Source: a virus
Lineage: Duplodnaviria > Heunggongvirae > Uroviricota > Caudoviricetes
IMG/VR virus record: IMGVR_UViG_3300033494_000001
Length of the DNA stretch: 64,000 nt
Strand: one strand, 5' to 3'
The position numbers were made by a program, and so were the translations under genes. Position 1 is the stretch's first letter; the number at the start of each line of letters is the position of its first letter. Shown here in pieces: positions 15,901 to 61,619 of this stretch. The notes beneath the pieces were generated by a model. The model worked only from the letters and a program-made list of their open reading frames with translations, did no database searches and was not told the DNA's origin.

Positions 15901-17856
15901 AGTCTTGAACCAAGAGAGGAAGGAGAATTAGTACTTAGAGAATTTGTTAATAATAGATTTAAAGACCAAGCAAGGAGTATAAAAGAATATGAATTAGCTA
16001 AAAAAATAATTGAGCGTGATATTAAAAGTGTTGGAAGATTAAATGCTAGTCCTTGAGGAACTAAAAAGTTTGAAGCTAAGAAAAAAACTTCTAAACCAGC
16101 AGAAGTAACAAAATCTTCTGAAAAACCAAAACAATTCTTGCCACCCCCTACTAAGTCAGGAGTAGTTATACCGCCTCCATCTTTTAAAAAACCCTCTGTA
16201 GTTAAAGTTAATGAACAATTAATTAATAAGGTTAATAAAAAAGCAACCCCAAGAGATAAATCTAAAAAAGGTTGAACAGGAGAAACTCATTGAATGTTAG
16301 AAGGTGGAATTTTAAAATATCAAAATGCCGCACAATCATCAATGGGTCCATTAAATAATCCTACATGAAAAAAAGGATACACTAATACTTTACAAAATAC
16401 AGGTGTTGATTATGGTACAGGATTGAGTCTTAAAGCGACACAACAATTTACAGTTCCGTCACAACCTAGAACCGGAAATTATTATGGAGGAGTTACAAAT
16501 GAATTAATTCAAAAGAATTGGAATCCTGAAATTTTAAAAGCTGCTGGTTTAGACCCAACTAATGTAAGTACATGACCTTCTAATACTCCTCAATTATTAC
16601 AAAAATATATTGAAACTAGACCTGAATTAATTAGTCAATTAAAAGATCAAACAAGTCCTTCACATAATAAATTTGGTATGGATTGATATTATACAGGATT
16701 AAAATCAGAAACTCCATCTACTCAAACTACAACAACTACTCCAACAGGAACTCCTGCTGCAGAAACTAAACCTATAGTAATTCCTGCAACTGGGCCAACT
16801 ACTAATATTAATAGTAATGTAATTCAAAAACCTGGAATATGAGATTCTTTAAAAGGAACTCTTGATTCTACAGGTATTGCTAATGGTTTAATGTATTTAA
16901 ATACTTTAGGTGCAAATGCATGAATAGGAAATGAACAAAGAAAAGCTATTTCATCCGGACTTTTTCAACTTCCTTATATGCCACATCAATATATAAGAGC
17001 TGATAAACCTTATTCATTAGCTGCAAATAAACAAGCGGCTGACGTAAATTCTCAAGGTAAAAAAATAGCAGCATCAACATCGGATTTAAATCAAGGAAAT
17101 GCTATTAGATTACAAGCTTTAAAACAAGCAAGCGGAATAATTGAAAAAGGACAAGCACTTGATTGGGAACGATTGGATAAAGTTAGAGAAATGCAATTAA
17201 AAAACAATGCTTCTGTTGATTCATATAATACTCAAACTCTTGGTAAAAATAGAGGTCTTACGGCAGAAGCAATGCAAAAAATACATTTAACTAATGCAAA
17301 TCAACGTAATGCTCAAAATACAGCAACTAATAATTGATTAACTGCTTGGGATAAAAATTATGGTTTAAATCAATATAAACAAAATATGGCAAAATATTTT
17401 GATATGACTAACGACCCTAAATTAAAATCTTTATCTGATGAATACACAGACTTTGCAGGAGAGAAAGGAAAGGCATCTGCACTTGCGACATATAATGCTA
17501 ATAAGGCGAATTATGATAAAACTCATATGCCTGGAGGTGTTAATGGAGGAACTCAATACAAACCTTTTGAAGAATCGGATGAATATAAACAATGGCAAAC
17601 TGATATTACTAAAAAATTAGATTATCTTAAATTGCAAATGAAACCTTTAGAATTAGCTCAACAAAAATTAAATCTTGATCAACAAATGTTGTATTGGAGA
17701 AAAGAGGGCGGAAAAATGACAAAGAAAGAGAAAATTGATATTGATAATAATAAATTCAATAATGTTAAGCGATTAAAGGAAACTGAATTAACTTATAAAG
17801 CAATAATGCATAATAATGAAATGTTACAAAAAGCTTTAATTAAAGTGTTTAAATAA
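12949..17856 (+). CDS. Large virion cargo/ejection-type protein, 1635 aa, TGA=Trp
   Basis: Seven track ORFs in one frame joined by 19 TGA, TAA 17854-17856. Starts MALVKKLQPGG. Has a Gly/Ala-rich hydrophobic stretch (about 14750-14990) and Pro/Thr-rich linkers. Confidence 0.7.
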
Positions 17857-19769
17857 TGGAATATAGAAAAATAAGAAAAATGGAACAGGGGAGTGGATTT
17901 GCAACATTCACTCCCATTGTTAAAACTGCTCCAGCATCAAGATCTTCAGATGATAGACATTCAAATAGTGATGAAAAATCTCCGGAATCTTCGTCTGTTA
18001 TAGATTCTAAAATGATAGAGCAGCTATATAAATCAGGGGGATTAGTAAATGATGTAAATCAATTAGTATCTGAATTGGTACAAATAGAACAGAGTTCTAC
18101 AAATCCTTTCTTAAGTAATATTAATAGAGGTAGAACATTACAAATTGCGGCTAAAATTAATGAAATTAGTCAAAACAAAGACTACTGAAAAGACGCTATT
18201 ACTCGTTCAAAAGAAGCAGGAGGTTTAGGTGAAGTTGCAGTAGATACTGATGGAAGAGTTTATACTAAGACTAAAGATAATAAAATACAAGCTATATCTT
18301 TAGCTGATTATTCTGAAAATAGAGAATCTACTAAACTTTTAAGTGTTCAAGAATTATTATATGAAAGACAATATAATAAATCTTTGACAGGACAAAATGG
18401 AGTATTTACTATTGCCGATAATGCAATTGGATTAAATAAAATTACAGAACATATAAAATCCTTAGTATCTGCTTTAGGAACTGATAGTACAGAAGATTCA
18501 GGAATTTATTCTAAGTCTAAATCTCAAGAATTAGCAGCGTCTTTTGGAGGTAAACAACCTACTAAGGAACAAGCATATTCACTGTCCATTCTTAATAGAG
18601 TTATTAATAGTCCATCTGAGTACTCTCAAGTTAAAACTAAAAATTCAACTGAAAGAGCACATATAGAAAAAGCATTAGGATATATATGAAATACTTTAGG
18701 AAATCCTGCTCAACAGAAACTTAGAGCAACTGCTGCTTTAAATGGGGTAGCTAGACCTGAACAATTTATTTTAGATATATTAGAAACAAATACGGATGAA
18801 AGTCGAAGTATTGAAGTTTCTCCTGAAACAACAGCAAAAGCAACAGGAAAAGATACAACAGATGATAATTCTAAAAAAATCGCCTTGACTCCTTCAGAAT
18901 TATTTCATAATGATAGATTATACCAGCCGGGAATGACTTATGAAATTAATAATCCAAAAGCAAAAGTAAGTTTAAGAGCTACAGCTACAGGTATTGGACC
19001 TTTATATAGTTTAACAAAACCAGGAGAAGTATTAGAAGCTGCAGTAGTATCTAGTATTTTTGATAAAAATAATTATTCTTCTATTTTGGACAAATCAAAA
19101 GTTTTTATAGGTGATACTAAAATTGATCCTTTATTACTTTCAGAAGTTGCATTTACAGGAGAAGATGTTGGAAAAGTTTATTTACCTGTTAAATCTGATG
19201 GTACTCCTGATTTAGGACAAATGGAAAGATTTAATAATGCTTACCAAGTATTTAATATTAACAAAGATACGTGAACTACTCAACAAATTCAAGAATATTT
19301 TAGAAAAGCAGGATTTCCTGGAATCCAAATAAAAGAAAGTAAAACTTCGGATGGAAGTATTACTAAAGTAATTGGAGAAAATGGAAATGTTAAGCCTTTC
19401 TTAGCGGTTCCGATTATTACTAATTCTGCTTCAGATTTATCTAATAATCCATGAATGGTTGAACAAGTAGGTAATCAAAAAGATTCTGCTAAAATGGTAA
19501 TGAATCAAGCGTTCTCTGTTTTAGGAGGAACTCCAAGTAAACCAAAAACAATAAATACAAGTCCTTGAGGGTACCTTTCTTTAGAAACTCCTTATAAAGG
19601 CGTGATGTTTGTAGCATATCGTCCAGAATCTAGTGGTATATTAAGTTCTATGTATGGACATGTTTCTGGCAAAGCCCCAAATGAAACAGATATATATAGA
19701 AATTTAAACTATAGTGTTACAGGTAATAATCCAATAGGTATCCAAGGATCTGCAGCAGTTTTAAAATAA
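17856..19769 (+). CDS. Virion cargo-type protein, 637 aa, TGA=Trp
   Basis: Track ORFs 17856, 18384 and 18885 in one frame, 5 TGA, ends TAA TAA at 19767. Confidence 0.7.
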
Positions 19770-28707: not shown

Positions 28708-31700
28708 ATGAGTAAATGTAATATAGATTACATCAGTCAAATAATAAATGCTATTGACGACTATTTTTCCGAAAACAAAGACGGAAATTTAGAGAATTTA
28801 GAATTGTATGTGAAAGAAGAAGTCCCCCGATTAGAGGGGGACTTTTCTCTTGATACATACTTTGTAAATTCACAAGAATTTAAAAATCAGTTTAATACAG
28901 TTCTTAAATCCTATGGATTAGTATTATCTAGTTTTGTAAAAGATTTAGATTCAAAAGAAGTACATACAAAAAGTAATATTACTCAGAATTTTTCTTCTGG
29001 AAATATAGCAAGTCTATTTCATACTTTACCATTAGTACGATCAAATTTTGAAAGAATATCTACTGAAAAAATCCTTAATTCTATTTTTATTGGAAGTAAA
29101 GATGATATAAACTTTGTTCAAAATAATAGTGAAATAACAAATAATATTTCAAAATTAAAATCTGAGTTATTTGAAGATATTCAGAAATTTTTAATTAAAA
29201 ATAATGTATTAGTTGGAGAAGTTAAACCTTTGTATAATAGTCACTATGATGTTGTAGATTATGCTTATTATCAAAGAGTTATGGGCCTATTAGATGCGTA
29301 TTTTTTCTCAGGCAAGATATTTAAATTGATTAAGACTTACTCGAATAAACGAGGTATTCCTAATTTATCTTTAAATACAATTAGTAATGAAGAAATTTTT
29401 GATGCTTATAATGCCGGGATATTACTGTCTAATTTTGACACAGTATTAGCGGAACAATTTTCCGGAATTATTAATATCAACTATAATTTATTTAATAATT
29501 TAAGAAGTAGTATAGATAAAGAAGATAAATATACTTTAAAAATTCAAGGATTAAAAACTGAATATTGGCAAAACGATAGTCATGAAGATGAAGGTTCTGA
29601 AAATTCAGAAAGTAAATTAGTTAAATTGTTAGTTTCAACTATTCCTTATTTAAATAAAGAGGGAAAAGATGTTGGAATACAAATGGAAATGAAAGATTTT
29701 TATCTATTTGCAGCTATGATAAGTGATTTTGAAACTATATATGGCGTACATTTAAAACATGATAAATCTTTAAAGTTTAGATATTTAAATGAAAATCCAA
29801 AGGAAGTTCTTTTATGATATTTAGATGAAATTGAAAAAGCAATTCAACATAAGCCAAATGCAATAGGTCCTCTTGAAAATGTATTTCAAAAGAATTTTGA
29901 ATTTGCATTATCTTTAAAAAAGTATATTAATTCTGATAAATTAAATATTTTAGAAAAAGAGAAAAATTCAAAGGAATCATTAATTACAATGTTTGCACAA
30001 ATTATTAATAATAACTTTGGTGCTTCTTACTCACGATATGATTTTACAGGAGAATATACTATTAATCAAATGTATAGTCAAAACTTTAATAATATTGCTG
30101 TACAAAATACAACATTTAACTATTTATCAAAATTAGTTAAATCAAGTAGATTTGAAGAAAAAATTTATAAAAAAGAATTATCGGATATATTAAATGCTTT
30201 TAATGAAAATGATTTAAGTAAAATTAATATCAAAGATAAAGTAAATATTGTTAATTATATAAAATCAAAATCTGGAATTAAAATTTCATATTTAGGATTT
30301 GACAAATTAATTCAAGTTTTAAAACCAACAAGTAAAAAAGAATTTGAGAATTGATTAATTAGCTTTACTGATAAATTAGGTAAAGATCATAGTATTATTC
30401 AAGCACTAGATGATGAGACAACTAAAAATATCTCAGGAGATGCATCTATTACGAAATATATGCCAAATATATTAGATGATGCAGTTTATAAAACTGTAAC
30501 TGATGCATATTTATTAAATTATATCATGAAACCAGTAATGAATATTACTACTTATGATAATAAAAAACTTCCCACTTTTAAAGTTGCAACACTAACTCAA
30601 AAAGATTCAGAATTATTTGAATTACAAAGAAATTTTGAATTAGATAATGCTAAGAATACTTCTTTTAGAAGTCTTTTAACAAAACAATACTCATTAGAGA
30701 AAAACACTTCGCAAAATAATTTATTTCCATGTGTAATTCTTGGAACTGGTACTAAATTAGAATTAACAAATGAAGATGGAGGTAAAAGTGCAACTAAATT
30801 TAATGTTTCTGAAAACTTTACATCGGATTTTCAATTTGATTTCTTACAGAATATTTTAGACAATAATAGATTTTCTATAATGTTAGGAAACTATTCTGAT
30901 AAAAATACTATTCTTACAAAGATTATTAATGGATTAATTAAATTAGATGGAAATACGCCATTAATTCAAATGCCTGTTACAAAAATATTAAAATATGTAC
31001 AAGATCAAGGTCAAACATATTACAAAGATACTTTATTTAAAGTATTTGACGATTATGAAAAATTGTTAGGTATAAAATTGTCTATGAAAACGGTACCTGA
31101 AGAGAATATTAAAAAAATTAATGAAGCACTTAATAAAATTAATGTGCGTAGTTTATCTCAAAAAGCTTCTCAATTAGGAATTAATTTAACCGAAGAACTT
31201 CATTATTCTAAATACTTTATAAAAGACGAAACAACTGGTAAATTTAAACAAATCTATGGATTAAATCAATTACTTGTAGATAACTTTAGGATATTTAATA
31301 ATCCTAAATTATTTGGGGAATTTGTTAAATTGCAGGAAGAAAACATGATTAATAAGTTTAAAGAATTTAATAAGAATGTTAATGGAGGGAAAGAAATTAC
31401 TTTTGCGGGCAGTCCAAAGTTTGAAGAAATAATTAAGAAATTAGGAATTTCTAAAGAAGAATTTACAAAAAAAGGTACTGAAACTAATTATCGAGATTTA
31501 TTAGGAGCTAATGGAATTAATCCACTTTTAAAAAAATGGATGTGATTAAACGCTTTAATGAGAAATGAATATATGTTTATTTCTGCAAAAGGTGAATATA
31601 TGCATCCTCATAAATTAAAAGAAAATCTATTATATAGAGGTGATTCAAAGGAAGTAAATTGGGTCGATTATGAAAAAGAAATGAGTGGTCGTATGATTAG

Positions 31701-41041: not shown

Positions 41042-44000
41042 ATGACAAATTGCTATTATTACAAAGATGGAGAAAAGATAAACGACATACAAACTTTAAT
41101 TACTAAATTTTTTGAAGCCAACTATCAATTAAAAAATGATAAAATTTATAGTAAAGAAGAGATTCAAAAAAGTACAATTAATAAGATTTTAAATGTAGTT
41201 AAAGTTTCAGATTATACTGCCTCTGACAATGAAATCGTAACAGAGTTTATTACAACTCCACATCCAGGTTTATATAATTCTTTAGGAATTGAAACAAAAG
41301 AAAAAGGAATTTTAGCTCCAGAAATTATTGAAAAAAATAGAGTTTACTATTTTATAAAAGAAAACTTAGACCGAGTTCAAAATATTTCTCCAACAGAAAA
41401 CATATCCGGATTAAAATATGATGAAAAATTACTAGAATACATTTCAACTTTTGATGAATTAAAAAATATTCCTTTAAGTAGATTAATAACTCTTTTAAAT
41501 GAATATTATAATATTCGAGAAATCGAAGAAAAGACAAAGGATTTTGGTACATTTTTACATAATATTATTTCTTTAAAAATACAAGATAAAGAATATAGTA
41601 AACTTATTGATCGATTTTTATCTGATCCAGCAAACTCAGAATTACTTGGTAACTATTCTACAAATGATTGAACTAAAAAGATTAATGAAATAGTAACAAA
41701 TGTTATTTCTCAGGTTCAAGGACAAGGGTATCTTATTAGTGAAATTATGATAATGACTGATGGAGATAAATTTAAAACACCAATTGATATTTGAGGTGAG
41801 GATTCAAAGATTTCAAGTGGAAAAAGAGGATTAAAAGGAAAACTTGACTTAGTAGCTGTTGATACATCAGGAAATGCACATATATTTGAAATTAAAATTT
41901 CTAAAACTAAATATCAGAAATGAGATACAGCTAAAAAGTTAACTTTAGATTGACAATTAGCTTTATATAGACAATTATTAGGATTACATATTAATATAGA
42001 TCAAACTCGATTATATGTAATTCCTATACATTTAGAAACTCTTGGAAATCCAGGTAGTATAAGTGTTGAAAAGATTGTAGATAGAGGAACTGAAAATAAT
42101 AGTGGTTTAAATTCAACTGGAGCAATAACTCAAAAAGCAAATAAACTCATTCCTAGAAAAGTAATTGCAGATTATAATCCAGATAGAGAATATAAATTAA
42201 AAGGGCAATTATCTGATTTACTTGGAAATCAATATAAAATAGAAACAGGACTTGAAGATTTTGATGTAGAAAAAATTGTAGAAAATGCAAGAAAACGTTA
42301 TGAAAAAGACAAGAAATGGATTAAATGAAATAACTTTGAGGGAATTTCAGGATTAAAAAAAGGTTATATTGAATCGGATACAGAAGAAGAGTTTAGAAAA
42401 AAAATTAAATTATATGTTGACCATGTAAAAACTCAAACTAATCGAAATGTCTCTATTTTAAAGGATGCTATTATATCAGCTATTAAAAGTAAAATTCCAG
42501 TTAAAACAAATTCATATGATTTACAAAAGGATTTAACTATCAATCATTTATTAACCGAATATTTAAATGATGATTGAGATGTAGTAACTGAAATTCCTGA
42601 AGCAATTGCTTTTGGTTTAGTTGTTTTAAAAAATAAATTAAATGGAAACATTAATGTTATTAGTTTATCTATAAATCAATTTGATGCATCAAGTCATATT
42701 GATGGAAAAACATATGGAGATTTAGAATTTTTAAAAACTTTTTTATTTTTAAATGAATTTAAAGATATATTAATTCCTACATCAGATGTTTCTGTTAAAA
42801 ATGATAAAATAGCACAAATTATAATTTATAATCCATTAAATATGCAAACTTATCCTAAAAATTGTTTTAGTAAGTTTGTTGAATTTAAAGAACAAATGTC
42901 TTTAAAAGAATCATTAAGAAAAGAATTAAAATTAAGTGAAAAAAATGTAGCTTCAATTGAGGATATTGCTTTATATAACTTAACTACTAATTTAAGAAAT
43001 TTTAATGGAACAAATAAAGAAGATGTTGAAAGAGTTTTTAAAAATATTAGTGATACAAATTTAGATTTATTAGATGTAGAAGCTTTAATTGAAGTTCAAA
43101 GAGAGTTGTTTAATTCCCCTGGATTTGTTGGATATCGAGATAAAACAATGAAAGGAGTAGTTGATTTCAATGATCCAAAAGAAGTACTAATTGCACTTTT
43201 ACAAGTAGTTATTGCTTCAAAAGGTCAAATGGAATTTGCTGATGATTATCAACGAATGTCTAAATATAGTTTAGGTTTTTCTGATTTCAAAAGTTTAATT
43301 GCCGTATTATTTAGTGATCATCAGGAAAAATATAATAAAGAACGTCAACGTATTCAAGGAATTACTCAGGGATTGTTATGAACTACTCCAGATTGAGTAG
43401 CATCAAAAGATTTACATAGTATTAATAAAATTATGGCTATGACAAATCAACATATTGGAGAAAAAATGTTGAAGGCATCAGAACAAATTGCTTGAAATAC
43501 TAAAAAATTCTATAAAGAAATTAATTTCAGTGGATTTTCTCGTAATATTATTGGTGAAACTCAAACAAAGCATGAAAATTTATGATTACATGATATAAAT
43601 CAAAAAGTATCTAAAGAATTTAGAACTAAAAATCCTTATGTGTTAGATAATCTTAATGCATTAGAGGATCATGAGCGAGAATACCTACAAAATTTATTGT
43701 TAATTATAAATGCACATAAATTACAAATTCCAGATTCAGAAATTGCAAAGTTAGATAGTAAAAATATAAAATCATTAATGACTAATAATAAAATAAAAGA
43801 TGCTTTAGAAAGTGAAGAATATTTTAGAATGCCATTAATTAGAAGAGAAGAAGTTACTAGATTTGGTGATATCTTTACTACTCCAGGAAAACTTTGAAAA
43901 GAAAAATTATCATCATATTTTCATGAATTTAATGATTATATTGATAATCGTGAATTAACTAAAGATGATTTGGCAGCTTTGGAGGCTCAAAATTTAGGAT

Positions 44001-45706
44001 TTTATGAAATGTATGATGTATATGCTAGACAAACTCCTGAGTATGTAGCTAAAGGTATTGAAAAACATTCAATAAATTATTTTGAATGAAATTTAGATAC
44101 TATTGCACATCGAATTGCTTTTAGTAAAATTAGAAAAAATGAATATGATAAAAAACTTCCAATCATTAATTCTTTTATATGATGGATGAAATTATCAGCC
44201 GGTAAAAATAATGAAGATATCTCCAATCAATTAGAGTATATTACTAATCAAATGAAATTATCTATTTTTGATGAACCAGTTATTGATGAAGAGTTTAAAG
44301 ATTTTGCTAAAGTAGCCGGTTTAGTTAAAGCAATTTCAACTCCTGCTATGTTAGGTTTCAAAATAACATCTTTAGTAAAAGAAATGACTATTGGAGTATT
44401 TAAAGGAATATCTTTAGCTGCTACTCAAATTTATGGAAAAGATCAATTTACAATTGGCGATTTAACTAAAGCTTATCACAAGTTAATGACTATTGATAAT
44501 AAGTTTTCATCTGAATTTAATTTAATTGATGATTTAAATAGATATTATAGATTTGCCAATATGGACGTTAATACTATTGCAAAAAAATCTCAATCTGATA
44601 GACGAGGTATGCTTAGAGGAACAGGTCGATATTTATATATGTGTAATACAATTCCTGATTATTATAATAGATTATCGATTTTTCTTGCTAAAATGATTCA
44701 TGATGGAAGTTATGAAGCTCATTCATTAGTTGATGGAGTATTTACTTATGATCCAACAAAAGATAAACGTTTTGAATATTATTTTAAAAATCGAGACAAA
44801 TATCAAAAAGGAAATGAATTTATCGCATCAACTAATGATGTTAAATATAATCAACAACGTCAAAGATATTTGTTATTACAAAATATGCTAAATAAAGAAT
44901 ATGGTAAAGATACTTTTTCAGAAAAAGATATAATTAATAAAGCATATTCAGAAACGGAGAGAACAAGTATGAAATCCTTTACTGATATGGCATATGGTTA
45001 TTATGATAAAGATGCTCAATCTCAAGCTAATAATACGTGATGAGGAATGACCTGATTACAATTTATGCAATTTTGGCCTGGAAAAATGAAAATGTGATTT
45101 GCTAAACCTATTGATGAACAACATAGAGATGAAAGTCCTATGGGTAAAGTTGTACAAGACTATTTAATTGTTGATGGTAAAAAAGTATTACAATACTTTA
45201 AAACAGTTGAACATGATGATGGAACAATTACAACTGAAACTACTGATCAAGATACAGGAGATCCAGTAATGAAATGAGAAGGTTCTCCATATGAAGGACT
45301 TTGGTATTCTGTAGTAGGAACATTACGTGATGTTGTAAAATTGGATTTTACTCATATTAAAAATAGTGAAGAAAGAAATAGACGTGCTTTATTTGCTTTA
45401 GCTGATGCTGGATTAATTTTTATAATGCTTGGTATTATGAAAGCTATAATAGATCAATTAATTGCAGAAAAAGGTACTGACGGTTTATCAGGTTCATTAT
45501 TAAATTTAACAGGAAGAGTTAATAATAAAGTTTTAAATGAATATAATGTATGACAAAGTACGTTAGGAGCTGTTAATACAGAACCTGTCTTCTTATCTTG
45601 AAGTAAAAAAATGTCAACAGATATATGAGATTCTATCTCTGGAGATAGAGAAATTATGGATGTTATGACAAGAAATATTGGTGCTGCTGAAGTGTTTAAG
45701 AAGTAA
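41042..45706 (+). CDS. Large virion protein with N-proximal PD-(D/E)XK nuclease domain, 1554 aa, TGA=Trp
   Basis: One frame through about 21 TGA (including tandem TGATGA 45038-45043) to TAA 45704-45706. Motifs GTFLH, GKLDLVAVD, IFEIK, WQLALYRQLL at about 41546-41980. Confidence 0.75.
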
Positions 45707-45708
45707 TC

Positions 45709-45761
45709 AAAAAAAAAATACCCCTCTACCGCAATTAAGCAGTAGAGGGGTATCTTATTTT
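45709..45761. terminator. Bidirectional intrinsic terminator between convergent blocks
   Basis: TACCCCTCTAC...GTAGAGGGGTA stem, preceded by an A10 run (T run on -) and followed by TCTTATTTT on +. Confidence 0.85.
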
Positions 45762-45768
45762 ATAAACA

Positions 45769-46479
45769 TTAGATTTGTTGAACTTCTTTTATTAGATTTT
45801 GTATTATTGTACCATAGTTATCTCCAGTGGCATATCCACTTTTTCCAATAATTTGAGCAGCTTGATATGGATCTGAAATTCCCACGATACTTTTAAATTT
45901 ATTACTAGTTGATAATAAATTAACATAATCTGCAAAACCTTCTTCTATTGAATTATACATTCTAAATGGTTCCATTCTATCTTCTAAACCATTTTTTCCT
46001 TTCTCTTTAGTTTTAAGGATTTGTTTAGGTCCTTTTCAGGAAGCAAATGCTTTTATACCTCCAACATTATTACCAGGAGTATGTTCACCTCATCCGGTTT
46101 CTAAAGCAATTTGAGCTAATAAATAGTCTTTAGGAATATTTAGTTTTTTAGATGCTTCTTCTGCCATTGGAGAATATATTTGAAGAAATTCTTTTTTATT
46201 TTTAGGCTTTATAGAAGTATTTTTAGACTTAACAGAAGCAGTTAATGTTTCCGGAGGATTTTCATCTAATAACTCCCTAATATTATATTTCTTTTCAGAT
46301 TTAATTTCTTGAGGAGCAGGAGTTGCAGAAGTTGCAGGAGATAAACTTATTCCTAATATACTGCTAATATCTTTATCTAAGTAATCATTATTACTATTAA
46401 AGTATTCTTGCTGAATTTCTTCTTTAGAAGGATTAGGATTTAATGTTATAGGTTTAAATGATGCGAATGTATTTTCCAT
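45769..46479 (-). CDS. FlgJ-like glucosaminidase/muramidase (peptidoglycan hydrolase), 236 aa, TGA=Trp
   Basis: Track ORFs 46090..46479 and 45769..45975 join through TGA at 46090-46092 and 46036-46038: LAQIALETG-W-GEHTPGNNVGGIKAFAS-W-KG...FRMYNSIEEGFADYVNLL...GYATGDNY, the glucosaminidase/FlgJ signature. Confidence 0.88.
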
Positions 46480-46505
46480 AGAATTATTTTTAATTATTTA
46501 ATCTA

Positions 46506-46513
46506 CAAAAGTA
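46506..46513 (-). promoter_or_regulatory. Possible Bacteroidota housekeeping-sigma -7 element (TAnnTTTG) upstream of the hydrolase
   Basis: Minus strand reads TACTTTTG 26 nt before ATG 46479. A TTTG lies 23 nt further upstream, longer than the usual spacing. Confidence 0.4.
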
Positions 46514-46545
46514 TAAATAAAATCTAAGATAAAATACAAAAATAA

Positions 46546-46597
46546 GAAAAAAAAAATAGGGGAACCCACATCAAATGATGTAAGTTCCCCTTTTCTA
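46546..46597 (-). terminator. Intrinsic terminator ending the early block
   Basis: GGGGAAC..ACATC/AAAT/GATGT..GTTCCCC hairpin (46559-46590), followed on - by TATTTTTTTTTTCTT. Confidence 0.75.
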
Positions 46598-49706: not shown

Positions 49707-51059
49707 TTAATTATCATCTTCAATATTTGATTCACCTTTATCTAACAATTTAGTTTCTCTTTCGTAAAAAGCATTTGATTTAGCTTTATATGCTTCAAAA
49801 TCATTCTCTTCAATACGAATAACTACTCCTTCTTCAGGTACTTTAGTTTTACAAATATAACAATCTTTTTCATTATATTGTTGTTTTAAATATTCTAAAA
49901 AAGTATTTCTCCAATCATTTAAATAAAATTCAGAATCTTGTTCTGTTGTTATTTGAAAGTGTAAAAAATCTTTAGCAAATCCATAATACAATTGAGGAAC
50001 AGCATTTAATCCATTCTTTTTACAGAAATCTTGAACTTGTTTTGCACTAAATTCAAATACTTTACCATCGGTATTTGTGTAAGTAATACGATAAATATAT
50101 GCTTTATGTAAACCTACATTACAGCCATAATCATAATCTTTTTGAATCATTAATCCTGATGGCATATAACCAACAATTTCATAATAAAAAGTCATTCCTT
50201 TTTGTAGATGCATTTTTAATTGATCATGGGCATATTCCCAAATATTAGCATCATAAAAGTGTTCCGCATTTGGATTTAGCTGTTCATTCTTAATAACTTT
50301 ACGAGAAGCAAATAAATAGTCATATTGTGTTGTTTCTAACCTAAAACGTTGTTTACCAAATGTAGTAATATTAGTATATAGATTATGGAAAAATGCTCCA
50401 ATTTTTTCTCGCATAGGTATATGTCGCTTACATAAAACATAAGAACTAATTCCCGATGTTCCATGTAATTTATAAGTTATACTAATTAAAGAATCAGGAT
50501 TAATTCTATGAATATTCTTATAAAGCATTGATGTATCTTGATGAAATCTAAATTGATTCTCTACAAGTTTACTTTCATACTTTTTACTCTGTTTGTCCTT
50601 TTTAGAGCCCGGAGTACCTGGAGTATTATGTTTTTTAATTACATACTTTCTACAGATTTCGATTCCATCCATTTCGTCAAAGCAATCTCCAAGTCTTAAA
50701 TCAGCAAAGCTCGTGGGAGTAAAATCAAGAGATTGTAGGGGCATGAATAAACCTTCCGATTTATTTCCTCTAAATTTTACACAACGAATACGACCATTTT
50801 CTTCAAAATAACCTTTTTGAGTTTGATCAGCATTTAATTCAGGTTTTCTATACAGATTATTTGCCTTTAAATAAGGCTCTGATAGTTGTGTTTCTAATGG
50901 AAAATACAATCCAATAGCCCCCGCTTGCACTCTTTTATCTACAATTACTTGGTTTCCCATAATAATTGCAGCTTGTACATTATCACAATTAGCAAGTGGA
51001 AGTAGAGTTTTAATCTCTACAACCACTGCTGCATAATTTTCATTTTTTGGTTTGTTCAT
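49707..51059 (-). CDS. RNA ligase (Rnl2/DRB0094-like) with N-terminal OB-like domain
   Basis: Nucleotidyltransferase motifs ITYKLHGTS, FYYEIVG, EEGVVIR, KAKS. N-terminal IKTLLPLANCDNVQAA. Confidence 0.8.
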   Translation of the reverse strand: MNKPKNENYAAVVVEIKTLLPLANCDNVQAAIIMGNQVIVDKRVQAGAIGLYFPLETQLSEPYLKANNLYRKPELNADQTQKGYFEENGRIRCVKFRGNKSEGLFMPLQSLDFTPTSFADLRLGDCFDEMDGIEICRKYVIKKHNTPGTPGSKKDKQSKKYESKLVENQFRFHQDTSMLYKNIHRINPDSLISITYKLHGTSGISSYVLCKRHIPMREKIGAFFHNLYTNITTFGKQRFRLETTQYDYLFASRKVIKNEQLNPNAEHFYDANIWEYAHDQLKMHLQKGMTFYYEIVGYMPSGLMIQKDYDYGCNVGLHKAYIYRITYTNTDGKVFEFSAKQVQDFCKKNGLNAVPQLYYGFAKDFLHFQITTEQDSEFYLNDWRNTFLEYLKQQYNEKDCYICKTKVPEEGVVIRIEENDFEAYKAKSNAFYERETKLLDKGESNIEDDN

Positions 51060-51366: not shown

Positions 51367-52545
51367 TTACTTATCCAAATCATATCTTACTGCTTGAAAT
51401 ATTGCTTGTAATGGAGTTCCGTCTTCAGAAAATTCAAAATACTTTACAGTACCCATTTTTCCAATGATATTATCCATATCTTCAATGTATTCAGCTTTCA
51501 TTTCACGAGTTCCAATAGGTTTAGCTTCAAAAACTATTCCTTCTTTAGTTTGTAAGATAAAACAAAAGTCTTCATCTCTTAGCTTTTCTGCATAATCAAT
51601 GATTTCAAATTCATCCTCTTGATACATTTTGACTTTAATCATAGTAGAGCCACGTTTACCAAACTCATATTCTTTATCTGGTTTACGAGCTACTAATCCT
51701 TCAAAGCCATCTAATACCCATTTATCATGGAGTCTTTGAATTTGTTCCCAACTATTTGTAAGAACATGCTCTTGAATTTTAATTTTCTTAGAGTCTTTAA
51801 AATGTTCTTCTAAATCTTTTAGGATTTCTAAGCGTTCTTCAAAAGTTTTATCAGGTATAGCTAAATCATATACCCAATACTCTAATGATTCACATCGAGG
51901 TTCCCAAGTTTCTAATCTTGCTATCCCAGATATTTTTTGAAGAAATTGTCCATGAACATATAATTCTCCATCAAATACAATGTTTGGATTTTCAGATAGA
52001 TATTCAGCTAATTCTGCTATAATAATTTGAGCAGAAACATCATAGTTTTTACCTCCGCGACTTACAGTAATTGGTTCATCAATTTCCTCATTCCATTTAA
52101 CCATACAGCGAACGCCGTTTAATTTTCGGCTACACCACATTGGTTTCTGTAAAACAGAGTTTTGACATTTATCAGATGATTTTGCTAACATAGGTTTTAA
52201 GTTACCTGCTTGGTCACTTTTCATACTAGGTACTAACAAATCTAATGCTGATGGTTTAATATCATCAAATTTCATAGGAGTTAAAGTTGATAATTTCTTA
52301 TAACCTTTATCCATATATTTATTGATAATACTATTAAATTCTAATTCCGCTTGTTGTATTACAGATCGTTTTGCTTTACCTTTTGCTATTGTAAGCTCGG
52401 GTTGATCTGTCATTTTGCCTTGATATTGTCCAGTACTTCTATTGATTAAAAATGAATTTCCATCCTGATTTAAAGAAGCAATAATTACTTGGATTTTATC
52501 TCTAGCATTTCTTGTTACAAGTACTATCTCAGATATTAATACCAT
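51367..52545 (-). CDS. ATP-dependent DNA ligase
   Basis: KPMLA, RKLNGVRC (motif I), FDGELY, YWVYDL, FEGLVARK, IKVK, OB domain. Start taken at MVLISE (52545). Confidence 0.9.
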   Translation of the reverse strand: MVLISEIVLVTRNARDKIQVIIASLNQDGNSFLINRSTGQYQGKMTDQPELTIAKGKAKRSVIQQAELEFNSIINKYMDKGYKKLSTLTPMKFDDIKPSALDLLVPSMKSDQAGNLKPMLAKSSDKCQNSVLQKPMWCSRKLNGVRCMVKWNEEIDEPITVSRGGKNYDVSAQIIIAELAEYLSENPNIVFDGELYVHGQFLQKISGIARLETWEPRCESLEYWVYDLAIPDKTFEERLEILKDLEEHFKDSKKIKIQEHVLTNSWEQIQRLHDKWVLDGFEGLVARKPDKEYEFGKRGSTMIKVKMYQEDEFEIIDYAEKLRDEDFCFILQTKEGIVFEAKPIGTREMKAEYIEDMDNIIGKMGTVKYFEFSEDGTPLQAIFQAVRYDLDK

Positions 52546-59827: not shown

Positions 59828-60588
59828 TATACTTTCAATAAACGATTAATAATCATGGTCTTCTCGAATTTATTCATAATATCTTTCTTATCATCAGTAA
59901 CGATTTGAGTAAAGCTATTATAAACATCATACATTGAAGGATCAATACCTTCAGGAATATAGTAATCACTTTCAGAATCTATAAATAATTGTTTATAAGC
60001 ATCAACTGGAGTACTAACTGCAATCTTTACTTTACCAAATCCATAGTCTTGTGATTCTCTTAATGCGTAATCTACCCATTCACCTAGATATTGAGTGCGT
60101 AAATTTCTATCTATATAGGTAGATTTTAGTTTTTCTAAACCAACTGCAAAATCATTAGTGTATTCCATTAATGATTGAATTGGTTTAAAATCAATGGGGT
60201 CTCCAGGAAGTAGGTCCTGTACATTTAACCACGATGGATTAAATACACATAGATTAGTACATGCTGAATTAAGATAACCTCTGTAGATTTTAACTACTGG
60301 TTTCTTTACATCAATGCCATAAAGAAATCCTATTACTTCTTCGTGATTATCTATTGTATACTTTTGCGGTAAAACTGCTTGAATTAAAACTCGATTAAAA
60401 GTTGTATCTTGAGCATCTTTATTAAAAGTCATTTGATCAGGTAATTTCACCTGAATCCTAAAATCTTGAGTAAATGCAGACATCCTTTCAATGAAAGGTT
60501 CTACATATGTTTTAGTAGGGAAAAACTCCTTATTTTTAATTAAGGTACTTTTTCCTTTAAATAATTCTTGTATTGTTAATTGATCCAT
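59827..60588 (-). CDS. Conserved crAss-like protein, possibly DUF932-like, 253 aa
   Basis: KIYRGYLNSACTNLCVF resembles the DUF932 R-x-x-C-x-N motif. C-terminal SMYDVYNSFTQ. Confidence 0.5.
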   Translation of the reverse strand: MDQLTIQELFKGKSTLIKNKEFFPTKTYVEPFIERMSAFTQDFRIQVKLPDQMTFNKDAQDTTFNRVLIQAVLPQKYTIDNHEEVIGFLYGIDVKKPVVKIYRGYLNSACTNLCVFNPSWLNVQDLLPGDPIDFKPIQSLMEYTNDFAVGLEKLKSTYIDRNLRTQYLGEWVDYALRESQDYGFGKVKIAVSTPVDAYKQLFIDSESDYYIPEGIDPSMYDVYNSFTQIVTDDKKDIMNKFEKTMIINRLLKV

Positions 60589-60950
60589 TATAATCTTGCT
60601 AAATACAATTCAACCGCTTCTATAAGCATTTCATCTGTTACATCAATTTCTGACATAATGTTATTTTCACATTCATATAAAGACATACAAATATCTCCTC
60701 CTGCATAAATTGAACTATGTTCATCAATCCAAGATTGTAATGCTCCTGATGCTAATCCATCTCTTAAAATCTGAGGTTCTCTTGCATTACGATCTTCGTC
60801 AGAATCATAATCTTGATCATACGCATAATCATAAAGGTGAAGAGTTTCAACTAAATCTTCAATCAGATCTTCATAGGATAAATTAAGATTAGTACCTAAT
60901 TCTCCACCTTTATAATCGTATACTTTTAATACGTGATAAGTTTTTTCCAT
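60588..60950 (-). CDS. Acidic hypothetical protein, 120 aa
   Basis: TAATG-coupled ORF. Confidence 0.6.
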   Translation of the reverse strand: MEKTYHVLKVYDYKGGELGTNLNLSYEDLIEDLVETLHLYDYAYDQDYDSDEDRNAREPQILRDGLASGALQSWIDEHSSIYAGGDICMSLYECENNIMSEIDVTDEMLIEAVELYLARL

Positions 60951-61252
60951 TATAATAATTGTTCTAAAATAGTTATTATCTGTACAGATTTAATTGTATG
61001 AATTCCAGGACATTCTGATTCTCCAAGCGGAGTACATTCATCGAAAAATTCAAATCCTTCAAAATGTCCATATGATATCTTTGCACTACAAGATGAATCT
61101 GCAAATTCTCGATTATAGTAATGGCCATTATTTGCTTTAATGGCGGCTACTATAGGTCGAATAAGTTCAATTTCATTATCAGTAATGCTGGTCATACACA
61201 AATCGTAATCACCATCATTATAATCTGCCTTAATTAAAAGATAGTTTTCCAT
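60950..61252 (-). CDS. Hypothetical protein, 100 aa
   Basis: Start taken at MENYLLIKADYNDGDY (61252). Confidence 0.6.
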   Translation of the reverse strand: MENYLLIKADYNDGDYDLCMTSITDNEIELIRPIVAAIKANNGHYYNREFADSSCSAKISYGHFEGFEFFDECTPLGESECPGIHTIKSVQIITILEQLL

Positions 61253-61253
61253 A

Positions 61254-61619
61254 TTACAATCTTTCTCCACAAGTTGGACAATATTTATAACCATAATATT
61301 GACTAAAAGAGGAACAACAAGATTTTTCTTCTTCGGGAACTATTAAATAAGTTAGTTCAGGAAAAATTTCATTCCAATTCAATATTCGTAAATCAATAGA
61401 ATAATCTTCAAATTCTTCATCGTGTTTTAAATCAGGTAATTCAAAAGAATCTCGAACATAATCAGTAAAACACTCAAGTAAATTTGATTCTGAACTAAAT
61501 GTTTCACCATCTATATTTTCTTTAAAATAATCTAAAATTGTCTCTAAAGAGTCACGGTAAGTTCTTTGTTCAATTTTTGTTGTTAAAACAGAATAATCAT
61601 TTTCTATTTGTACTTTCAT
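61254..61619 (-). CDS. Hypothetical protein with C-terminal CPTCG zinc ribbon, 121 aa
   Basis: SCC...YCPTCGERL. Confidence 0.6.
   Translation of the reverse strand: MKVQIENDYSVLTTKIEQRTYRDSLETILDYFKENIDGETFSSESNLLECFTDYVRDSFELPDLKHDEEFEDYSIDLRILNWNEIFPELTYLIVPEEEKSCCSSFSQYYGYKYCPTCGERL

Follow-up and report, generated by a model that had tools for sequence, protein, structure and literature searches.

Why should a gene on the replication strand of a recoded phage carry TGA codons in frame, one of them inside the catalytic motif of the enzyme it encodes? The gene lies in a stretch of 64,000 nucleotides of viral DNA (hereafter the window, meaning the whole stretch that was analysed). The initial annotation took it for a lysin transcribed by the host RNA polymerase (RNAP) and its TGA codons for a translational safety lock. 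We examined the gene, its expression signals and its counterparts in related genomes.

The phage and its relatives

The window genome is incomplete and was extended by contigs L221 (100% identity, 8,897 bases) and L224 (identical, 1,543 bases). Judging from its gene content, the phage is a large crassvirus that reads TGA as Trp. The crass capsid protein (PF23898) is encoded in the contiguous L224; a ring protein and a giant virion RNAP are also present, the latter with the motif DFDID (of the form DFDxD) in window gene 28708, and window proteins match crAss001 gp43, gp44, gp47 and gp50 weakly. Relatives measure 169-185 kb (172-185 kb for the complete ones), and the two complete genomes examined, G003 and G004, have 26-27 tRNA genes; in size and tRNA content they resemble the Zeta group of Crassvirales (145-192 kb, tRNA-rich). 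No cultured relative was found in the phage collection, and single-protein searches of viral contigs gave no matches; the homologues used here came from alignments.

Both G003 and G004 carry a UCA tRNA on the late strand, and no tRNA was found in the window or in the partial genomes G001 and G002. The UCA tRNA genes (G003 60008-60081, G004 161242-161337 (minus strand)) lie away from the tRNA cluster, near the head of the late region, and stand behind a TAnnTTTG element. They are built differently, with 74 bases in G003 versus 96 in G004. G004 also has a CUA tRNA, and amber recoding is not evident.

As in the recoded phages of Yutin 2021 (PMC7886860), Borges (bioRxiv 10.1101/2021.08.26.457843) and Lera (PMC12386605), structural genes use TGA for Trp and replication genes follow the standard code. 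Also common to those phages are a UCA tRNA, found here in the complete relatives, and recoded homing endonucleases within early regions. Unlike them, the window phage is best covered in metagenomes from microbial mats, not from gut; no RNA data set was among those listed as containing it, which speaks neither for nor against its transcription pattern. Furthermore, the late and lysis genes of the crAss-like phages of Borges form one recoded block, whereas here a late-type gene stands alone on the opposite strand.

The major capsid gene (L224:4511-5941; G001 1290-2720; G003 29206-30636; G004 126600-128030) uses TGA for 1/7, 2/7, 0/7 and 1/7 of its Trp codons, respectively, whereas other late genes prefer TGA. 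This avoidance suggests that read-through is costly in highly expressed genes.

The hydrolase gene and its in-frame TGA codons

The gene and its catalytic positions are as follows.

45769..46479, minus strand: hydrolase gene, 236 aa with TGA read as Trp (leader, ~aa 1-45; low-complexity linker, ~46-90; GH73 domain, ~95-234)
46090..46092, minus strand: TGA for the invariant Trp130, three codons past the catalytic Glu127
46036..46038, minus strand: TGA for Trp148
46003..46005, minus strand: invariant Glu159, in a predicted beta-hairpin, aligned with the second glutamate region of FlgJ and absent from the 129-aa product

The remainder of the annotated range, 46480-46597, is noncoding and holds the promoter and terminator region. 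The open reading frame (46479..45769, minus strand) encodes 236 aa under table 4 and 129 aa under table 11, so the TGA inside the catalytic motif and the short standard product were described correctly. TGA lies in this motif because Trp130 is the first of only two Trp residues in the hydrolase. Glu127 and Trp130 are invariant in an alignment of 13 orthologues, and both TGA codons sit on conserved Trp columns.

The 26 other minus-strand reading frames of at least 80 aa in the window contain 0 TGA and 79 TGG, whereas the 14 plus-strand genes contain 131 TGA and 28 TGG. TGA use in the hydrolase differs from the minus-strand rate (Fisher p=3e-4) and not from the plus-strand rate (Fisher p=1), and the chance of both Trp codons being TGA at the late-gene rate is 0.68. 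With TGA at conserved Trp positions, a late-gene-like rate and a UCA tRNA in G003 and G004, the gene has the characters of a TGA-recoded late gene. That no other minus-strand gene contains TGA is true of the window and untrue of the phage, in which a TGA-bearing resolvase lies ~4 kb past the window edge. The claim that the code follows function and not strand is supported, yet the hydrolase is no special case, since other recoded genes share the minus strand. Two replication-strand reading frames stop at TGA (51040-51042 and 52529-52531, minus strand), which fits standard decoding there.

The gene appears as two fragments in databases, as it would if its stops marked a pseudogene or assembly errors. 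We give this explanation next to no credence: the two stops coincide with conserved Trp positions, identical codons occur in several contigs and in a second study, recoding is genome-wide and the complete relatives carry the UCA tRNA. Same-strain contigs from the second study show no alternative letter in the TGA codons; a contig of another strain has TGG at Trp130, but with 151 bases and a depth of 2 it is too weak to use.

A GH73 hydrolase of the FlgJ type

The enzyme class given by the initial annotation, a peptidoglycan hydrolase, was refined to GH73/FlgJ-type by profile and predicted fold. PF01832 matches residues 104-234 (E 1.4e-24; 87.6 bits against a cut-off of 30.2), the profile of the hydrolase best matches FlgJ hydrolase domains, and the best fold match of its model is FlgJ 5dn5 (Foldseek E 8.7e-11), with high pLDDT from residue 91 onward only. 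The model has a lysozyme-like fold with the beta-hairpin, and Glu127, the general acid, and Trp130 align with the catalytic ALESGWG stretch of Salmonella FlgJ. In the orthologue alignment, itself aligned to FlgJ, Tyr216 is invariant and Thr218 nearly so (YxT/YAT motif). In fold, catalytic Glu motif, hairpin Glu and YAT motif the protein thus resembles the GH73/FlgJ domain (PF01832; PDB 5DN5, 3VWO). Unlike FlgJ, it has no flagellar rod-binding domain and carries a phage-specific leader, and its hydrolase activity is a prediction. Two long fused GH73 matches (P0025 and P0030) were set aside as coming from unrelated tailed phages.

The 129-aa product is without Glu159, the hairpin and the YAT motif. 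Glu127 and Trp130 belong to the catalytic helix motif, and Glu159 to the hairpin, described as required in PMC4752226; the product of standard decoding should therefore be inactive.

Promoter and terminators

The gene is flanked by the following features.

46558..46591, minus strand: intrinsic terminator ending the replication operon (-25.3 kcal/mol, z -7.1)
46506..46513, minus strand: Bacteroidota -7 element TAnnTTTG, 26 nt before the ATG
45715..45756, no strand assigned: terminator hairpin where the gene and the late operon converge (z -9.5), probably bidirectional
41042..45706, plus strand: gp47-like convergent neighbour, the last late gene, used as genome marker for the tree

Insulation by two terminators had been claimed, and both hairpins are real; the one at the upstream site is present in all syntenic copies inspected. 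The bidirectionality attributed to the downstream one did not emerge from the terminator scan, which scored the hairpin at 45756-45715 on the minus strand only, the U tail being weaker on the plus strand. Because the unrecoded genomes L012 and L103 share the terminator-promoter-gene-terminator layout, the insulation is independent of recoding.

The promoter element TACTTTTG ends 26 nt upstream of the ATG. Previously noted as TAnnTTTG-like, it is confirmed as host-type, TAnnTTTG being the Bacteroidota -7 consensus (PMC6847099); 16 of the 17 syntenic copies match it exactly, 19-33 nt before the start. A sigma-70 promoter scan gave no excess over shuffles; that promoter type is the wrong one for a Bacteroidota-style element. 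In both complete genomes, G003 and G004, matches to the promoter profile stand ahead of the scaffold-capsid operon, of a second late operon, of homing nucleases and of the unit with the UCA tRNA.

Dependence on the host RNAP need not mean that a gene is transcribed early: in phi14:2, early RNA is the product of the virion RNAP, whereas middle and late RNA come from the host enzyme (bioRxiv 10.1101/2020.03.07.982082), and crAss001 is thought to divide transcription in the same way. Transcription of the hydrolase gene is likely to be late. Because host-type promoters also stand ahead of some standard-code replication-strand genes, the promoter agrees with late timing and does not prove it.

TGA codons across relatives

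If the TGA codons formed a lock, the host RNAP would transcribe the hydrolase from the start of infection and TGA would have been selected against premature lysis. The contrast with the other minus-strand genes (two TGA versus 0/79) speaks for such selection, as does the loss of Glu159, the hairpin and the YAT motif from the 129-aa product. Other recoded phages show a TGA/TAG bias in their lysis genes (bioRxiv 10.1101/2021.08.26.457843), which is not seen for the window hydrolase.

We compared 17 syntenic copies, 15 of them in recoded genomes, taking the neighbouring late genes of each genome as background. A selected lock should leave TGA conserved or enriched over this background, and neither was found: in the recoded copies 18/32 Trp codons are TGA versus 20.3 expected from late genes (P(>=obs)=0.87), and the gene in the hydrolase slot contains no TGA in 6/15 recoded genomes, nor in the two unrecoded ones. 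Among the TGG-only copies are the closest hydrolase (77% identical) and those of L006 and L090, the nearest genomes on the neighbouring-gene tree. Moreover, the M15 peptidase gene of G003, which lies on the replication strand, follows the standard code throughout (5 TGG, 0 TGA), and lysis timing is set by the holin in Gram-negative hosts (PMC12894885). The lock might operate in certain lineages only. Because fewer genomes carry any TGA in the cassette gene than the neutral late rate predicts (9 versus 12.8, P ~0.01, kin not independent), the timing of cassette expression may differ between lineages. The safety lock was therefore not borne out, and we consider it quite improbable; the TGA codons of the hydrolase are most likely neutral.

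Separate candidate lysis genes

Holin-like and gp30-like lysis genes are found elsewhere in the same phage.

L224:2753-3360, plus strand: holin-like 74-aa gene and DUF5675 gp30-like gene, ~7 kb before the window

The 74-aa protein has a strong hydrophobic stretch, and the adjoining DUF5675 protein is 52% identical to crAss001 gp30. Both genes occupy the position of the crAss001 lysis cassette and neither contains a Trp codon, which also argues against a lock on lysis. A literature search on DUF5675 gave nothing relevant, and it is by position and by the annotation of the crAss001 record that the gp30 homologue is assigned a role in lysis. In G004, a holin-like gene adjoins a GH24 lysozyme, and the M15 peptidase is the corresponding candidate in G003. 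The window hydrolase, on the other hand, is an isolated unit outside any holin/spanin cassette. Consequently, of the proposed host-RNAP-transcribed lysin the host-type promoter stands, whereas the lysin is doubtful in view of these separate holin- and endolysin-like genes.

A swappable cassette with an FxxFxP leader

The 17 syntenic copies retain the terminators and the promoter, and most retain the leader of ~45 residues, while the domain at the locus varies: GH73 in 10, phage tail lysozyme in 4, SLT in 2 and GH19 in 1. Sister genomes carry different domains at five places on the gp47-like gene tree, which was built by a quick method, and no order of swaps is claimed. The PHROG matches of the tail-lysozyme copies are largely tail and tape-measure proteins. 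The hydrolase protein is composed of a leader, a linker and an exchangeable, predicted peptidoglycan hydrolase. At the junctions of L095, L101 and L105-L120 the cassette is absent and a single terminator is kept; in-frame TAG codons are few in L101 and many in L107.

The leader motif recurs in one late protein.

46444..46464, minus strand: FxxFxP motif of the leader (residues 6-12), retained when the domain is swapped
17898..17918, plus strand: matching FxxFxP, residues 15-21 of a 637-aa late protein (17856-19769), right after a QxSG/QxGG-type motif

In the window, G001, G003 and G004, a leader profile built from cassette leaders alone, with the tested genome left out, ranked the N-terminus of this ~620-aa late protein first or second of 20,000-51,000 positions. 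In G002, the fifth genome, the motif is missing from both the cassette protein and the ~620-aa protein. Outside the cassette, FxxFxP was found only at the N-terminus of a single cargo-like late protein (4/5 genomes). Because this protein gave no PDB, PHROG or crAss001 match and no detectable similarity to gp45 or gp46, its status as cargo rests on gene position.

The KxQxGG-like stretch that precedes FxxFxP in the ~620-aa protein is repeated in late proteins whose genes lie between those for tail and RNAP, and is possibly a processing or packaging signal. It is seen near N-termini and internally in window genes 8523, 9761, 12588, 12949 and 17856 (plus strand), and other crass-like genomes have GH73 or lysozyme domains inside proteins with a KxQxGG-type motif. 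More wall-hydrolase genes are present in crass-like relatives (G003 60555-61520, plus strand; L088:10001-12616; L270; L271; L273), some opposite in strand to their neighbours and several with KxQxGG-like motifs. Literature searches found no paper on this leader or on the QxGG motif and nothing relevant on a crAss muramidase; as far as these searches go, the modular hydrolase cassette is previously undescribed.

A probable virion hydrolase or a second endolysin

We lean towards a late-expressed, probably virion-packaged hydrolase used in ejection. The gene would be a stand-alone late unit at the end of the replication strand, in which the upstream terminator would block read-in from the replication operon and a host sigma-A promoter of the late-operon/UCA-tRNA class would start transcription. 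Because the hydrolase would be translated once TGA is already read as Trp, TGG would be free to drift to TGA in an AT-rich genome, as in other late genes, and the TGA codons, gained and lost among lineages, would be a by-product. The leader would direct the hydrolase into the virion with other cargo, and the wall would be opened at ejection; addressing the enzyme to the virion in this way seems to us the likeliest role of the leader, and somewhat probable. That FxxFxP is a portable capsid-loading address shared with one major cargo protein, and that the locus is a slot for exchanging unrelated wall-cutting domains behind it, we put forward more tentatively.

The shared leader motif, the tail-lysozyme swaps and the separate lysis genes speak for a virion hydrolase, as do the wall-hydrolase domains in KxQxGG-type proteins of other crass-like genomes and the lack of a signal peptide or SAR segment. 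The tail-lysozyme domains recall the virion-associated peptidoglycan hydrolases of tailed phages, and the gene adjoins gp47-like and RNAP genes, as do the cargo genes gp45-gp50 of crAss001 (PMC10172136). A precedent for its placement is given by the crAss001 virion cargo gp49/gp50, encoded on the replication strand at a similar junction; the text of the crAss001 atlas (PMC10172136) does not mention a hydrolase or muramidase. Against this model, the hydrolase gene is missing at the junction in L095, and GH73, GH19 and SLT domains occur in endolysins too.

The hydrolase could instead be a second, holin-released endolysin, likewise late and with TGA as a neutral by-product, its leader serving stability or partner binding. 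Its best PHROG matches carry the label endolysin, the protein is soluble and the export-signal check found neither a signal peptide nor a SAR segment; in the Zeta phage Lera, moreover, TGA occurs in three of the four putative lysins (PMC12386605). We find this rather unlikely, considering that the gene is distant from the holin-like gene, which adjoins another candidate lysin, that the leader motif is common to a protein of the late structural region and that the same slot holds tail-lysozyme domains.

Other recoded genes on the replication strand

The recoded resolvase of the same phage shows a different TGA pattern.

L221:5212-5661, plus strand: RusA-like resolvase, ~4 kb past the window end, with TGA at codon 12

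The gene, embedded in the replication operon, overlaps the end of the primase gene, with no TAnnTTTG within 80 bases. In its homologues (L227-L263), the N-terminal leader is variable and charged, and its Trp codon is TGA in 15 distinct copies and TGG in 0; the conserved internal Trp, in contrast, is TGG in 14/20 copies, and the internal codon is TGA in 4/6 of the copies that lack the leader codon (Fisher 1.8e-5 and 0.037, kin not independent). Because this is the pattern that a selected switch would leave, the resolvase leader is the best candidate for a selected translational lock.

In G001, an unrelated endonuclease-I-like resolvase (73057-73575) has TGA at codon 18. L221:740-1900 holds a GIY-YIG nuclease followed by a group I intron-like sequence that splits an AAA-type gene; the nuclease lies on the hydrolase strand and has TGA at codons 169 and 199 if read through. 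Recoded homing nucleases are also found on the replication strand in the complete relatives, as Borges et al. reported for another clade (bioRxiv 10.1101/2021.08.26.457843).

The hydrolase thus offers a comparative test of whether stop codons are selected for lysis timing; the answer here is no, and the resolvase is the better case. A packaging role of the leader, if real, would account for the crossing of peptidoglycan by these crassviruses at ejection, a point that the crAss001 structure paper did not address, and it would define a cargo-targeting signal.
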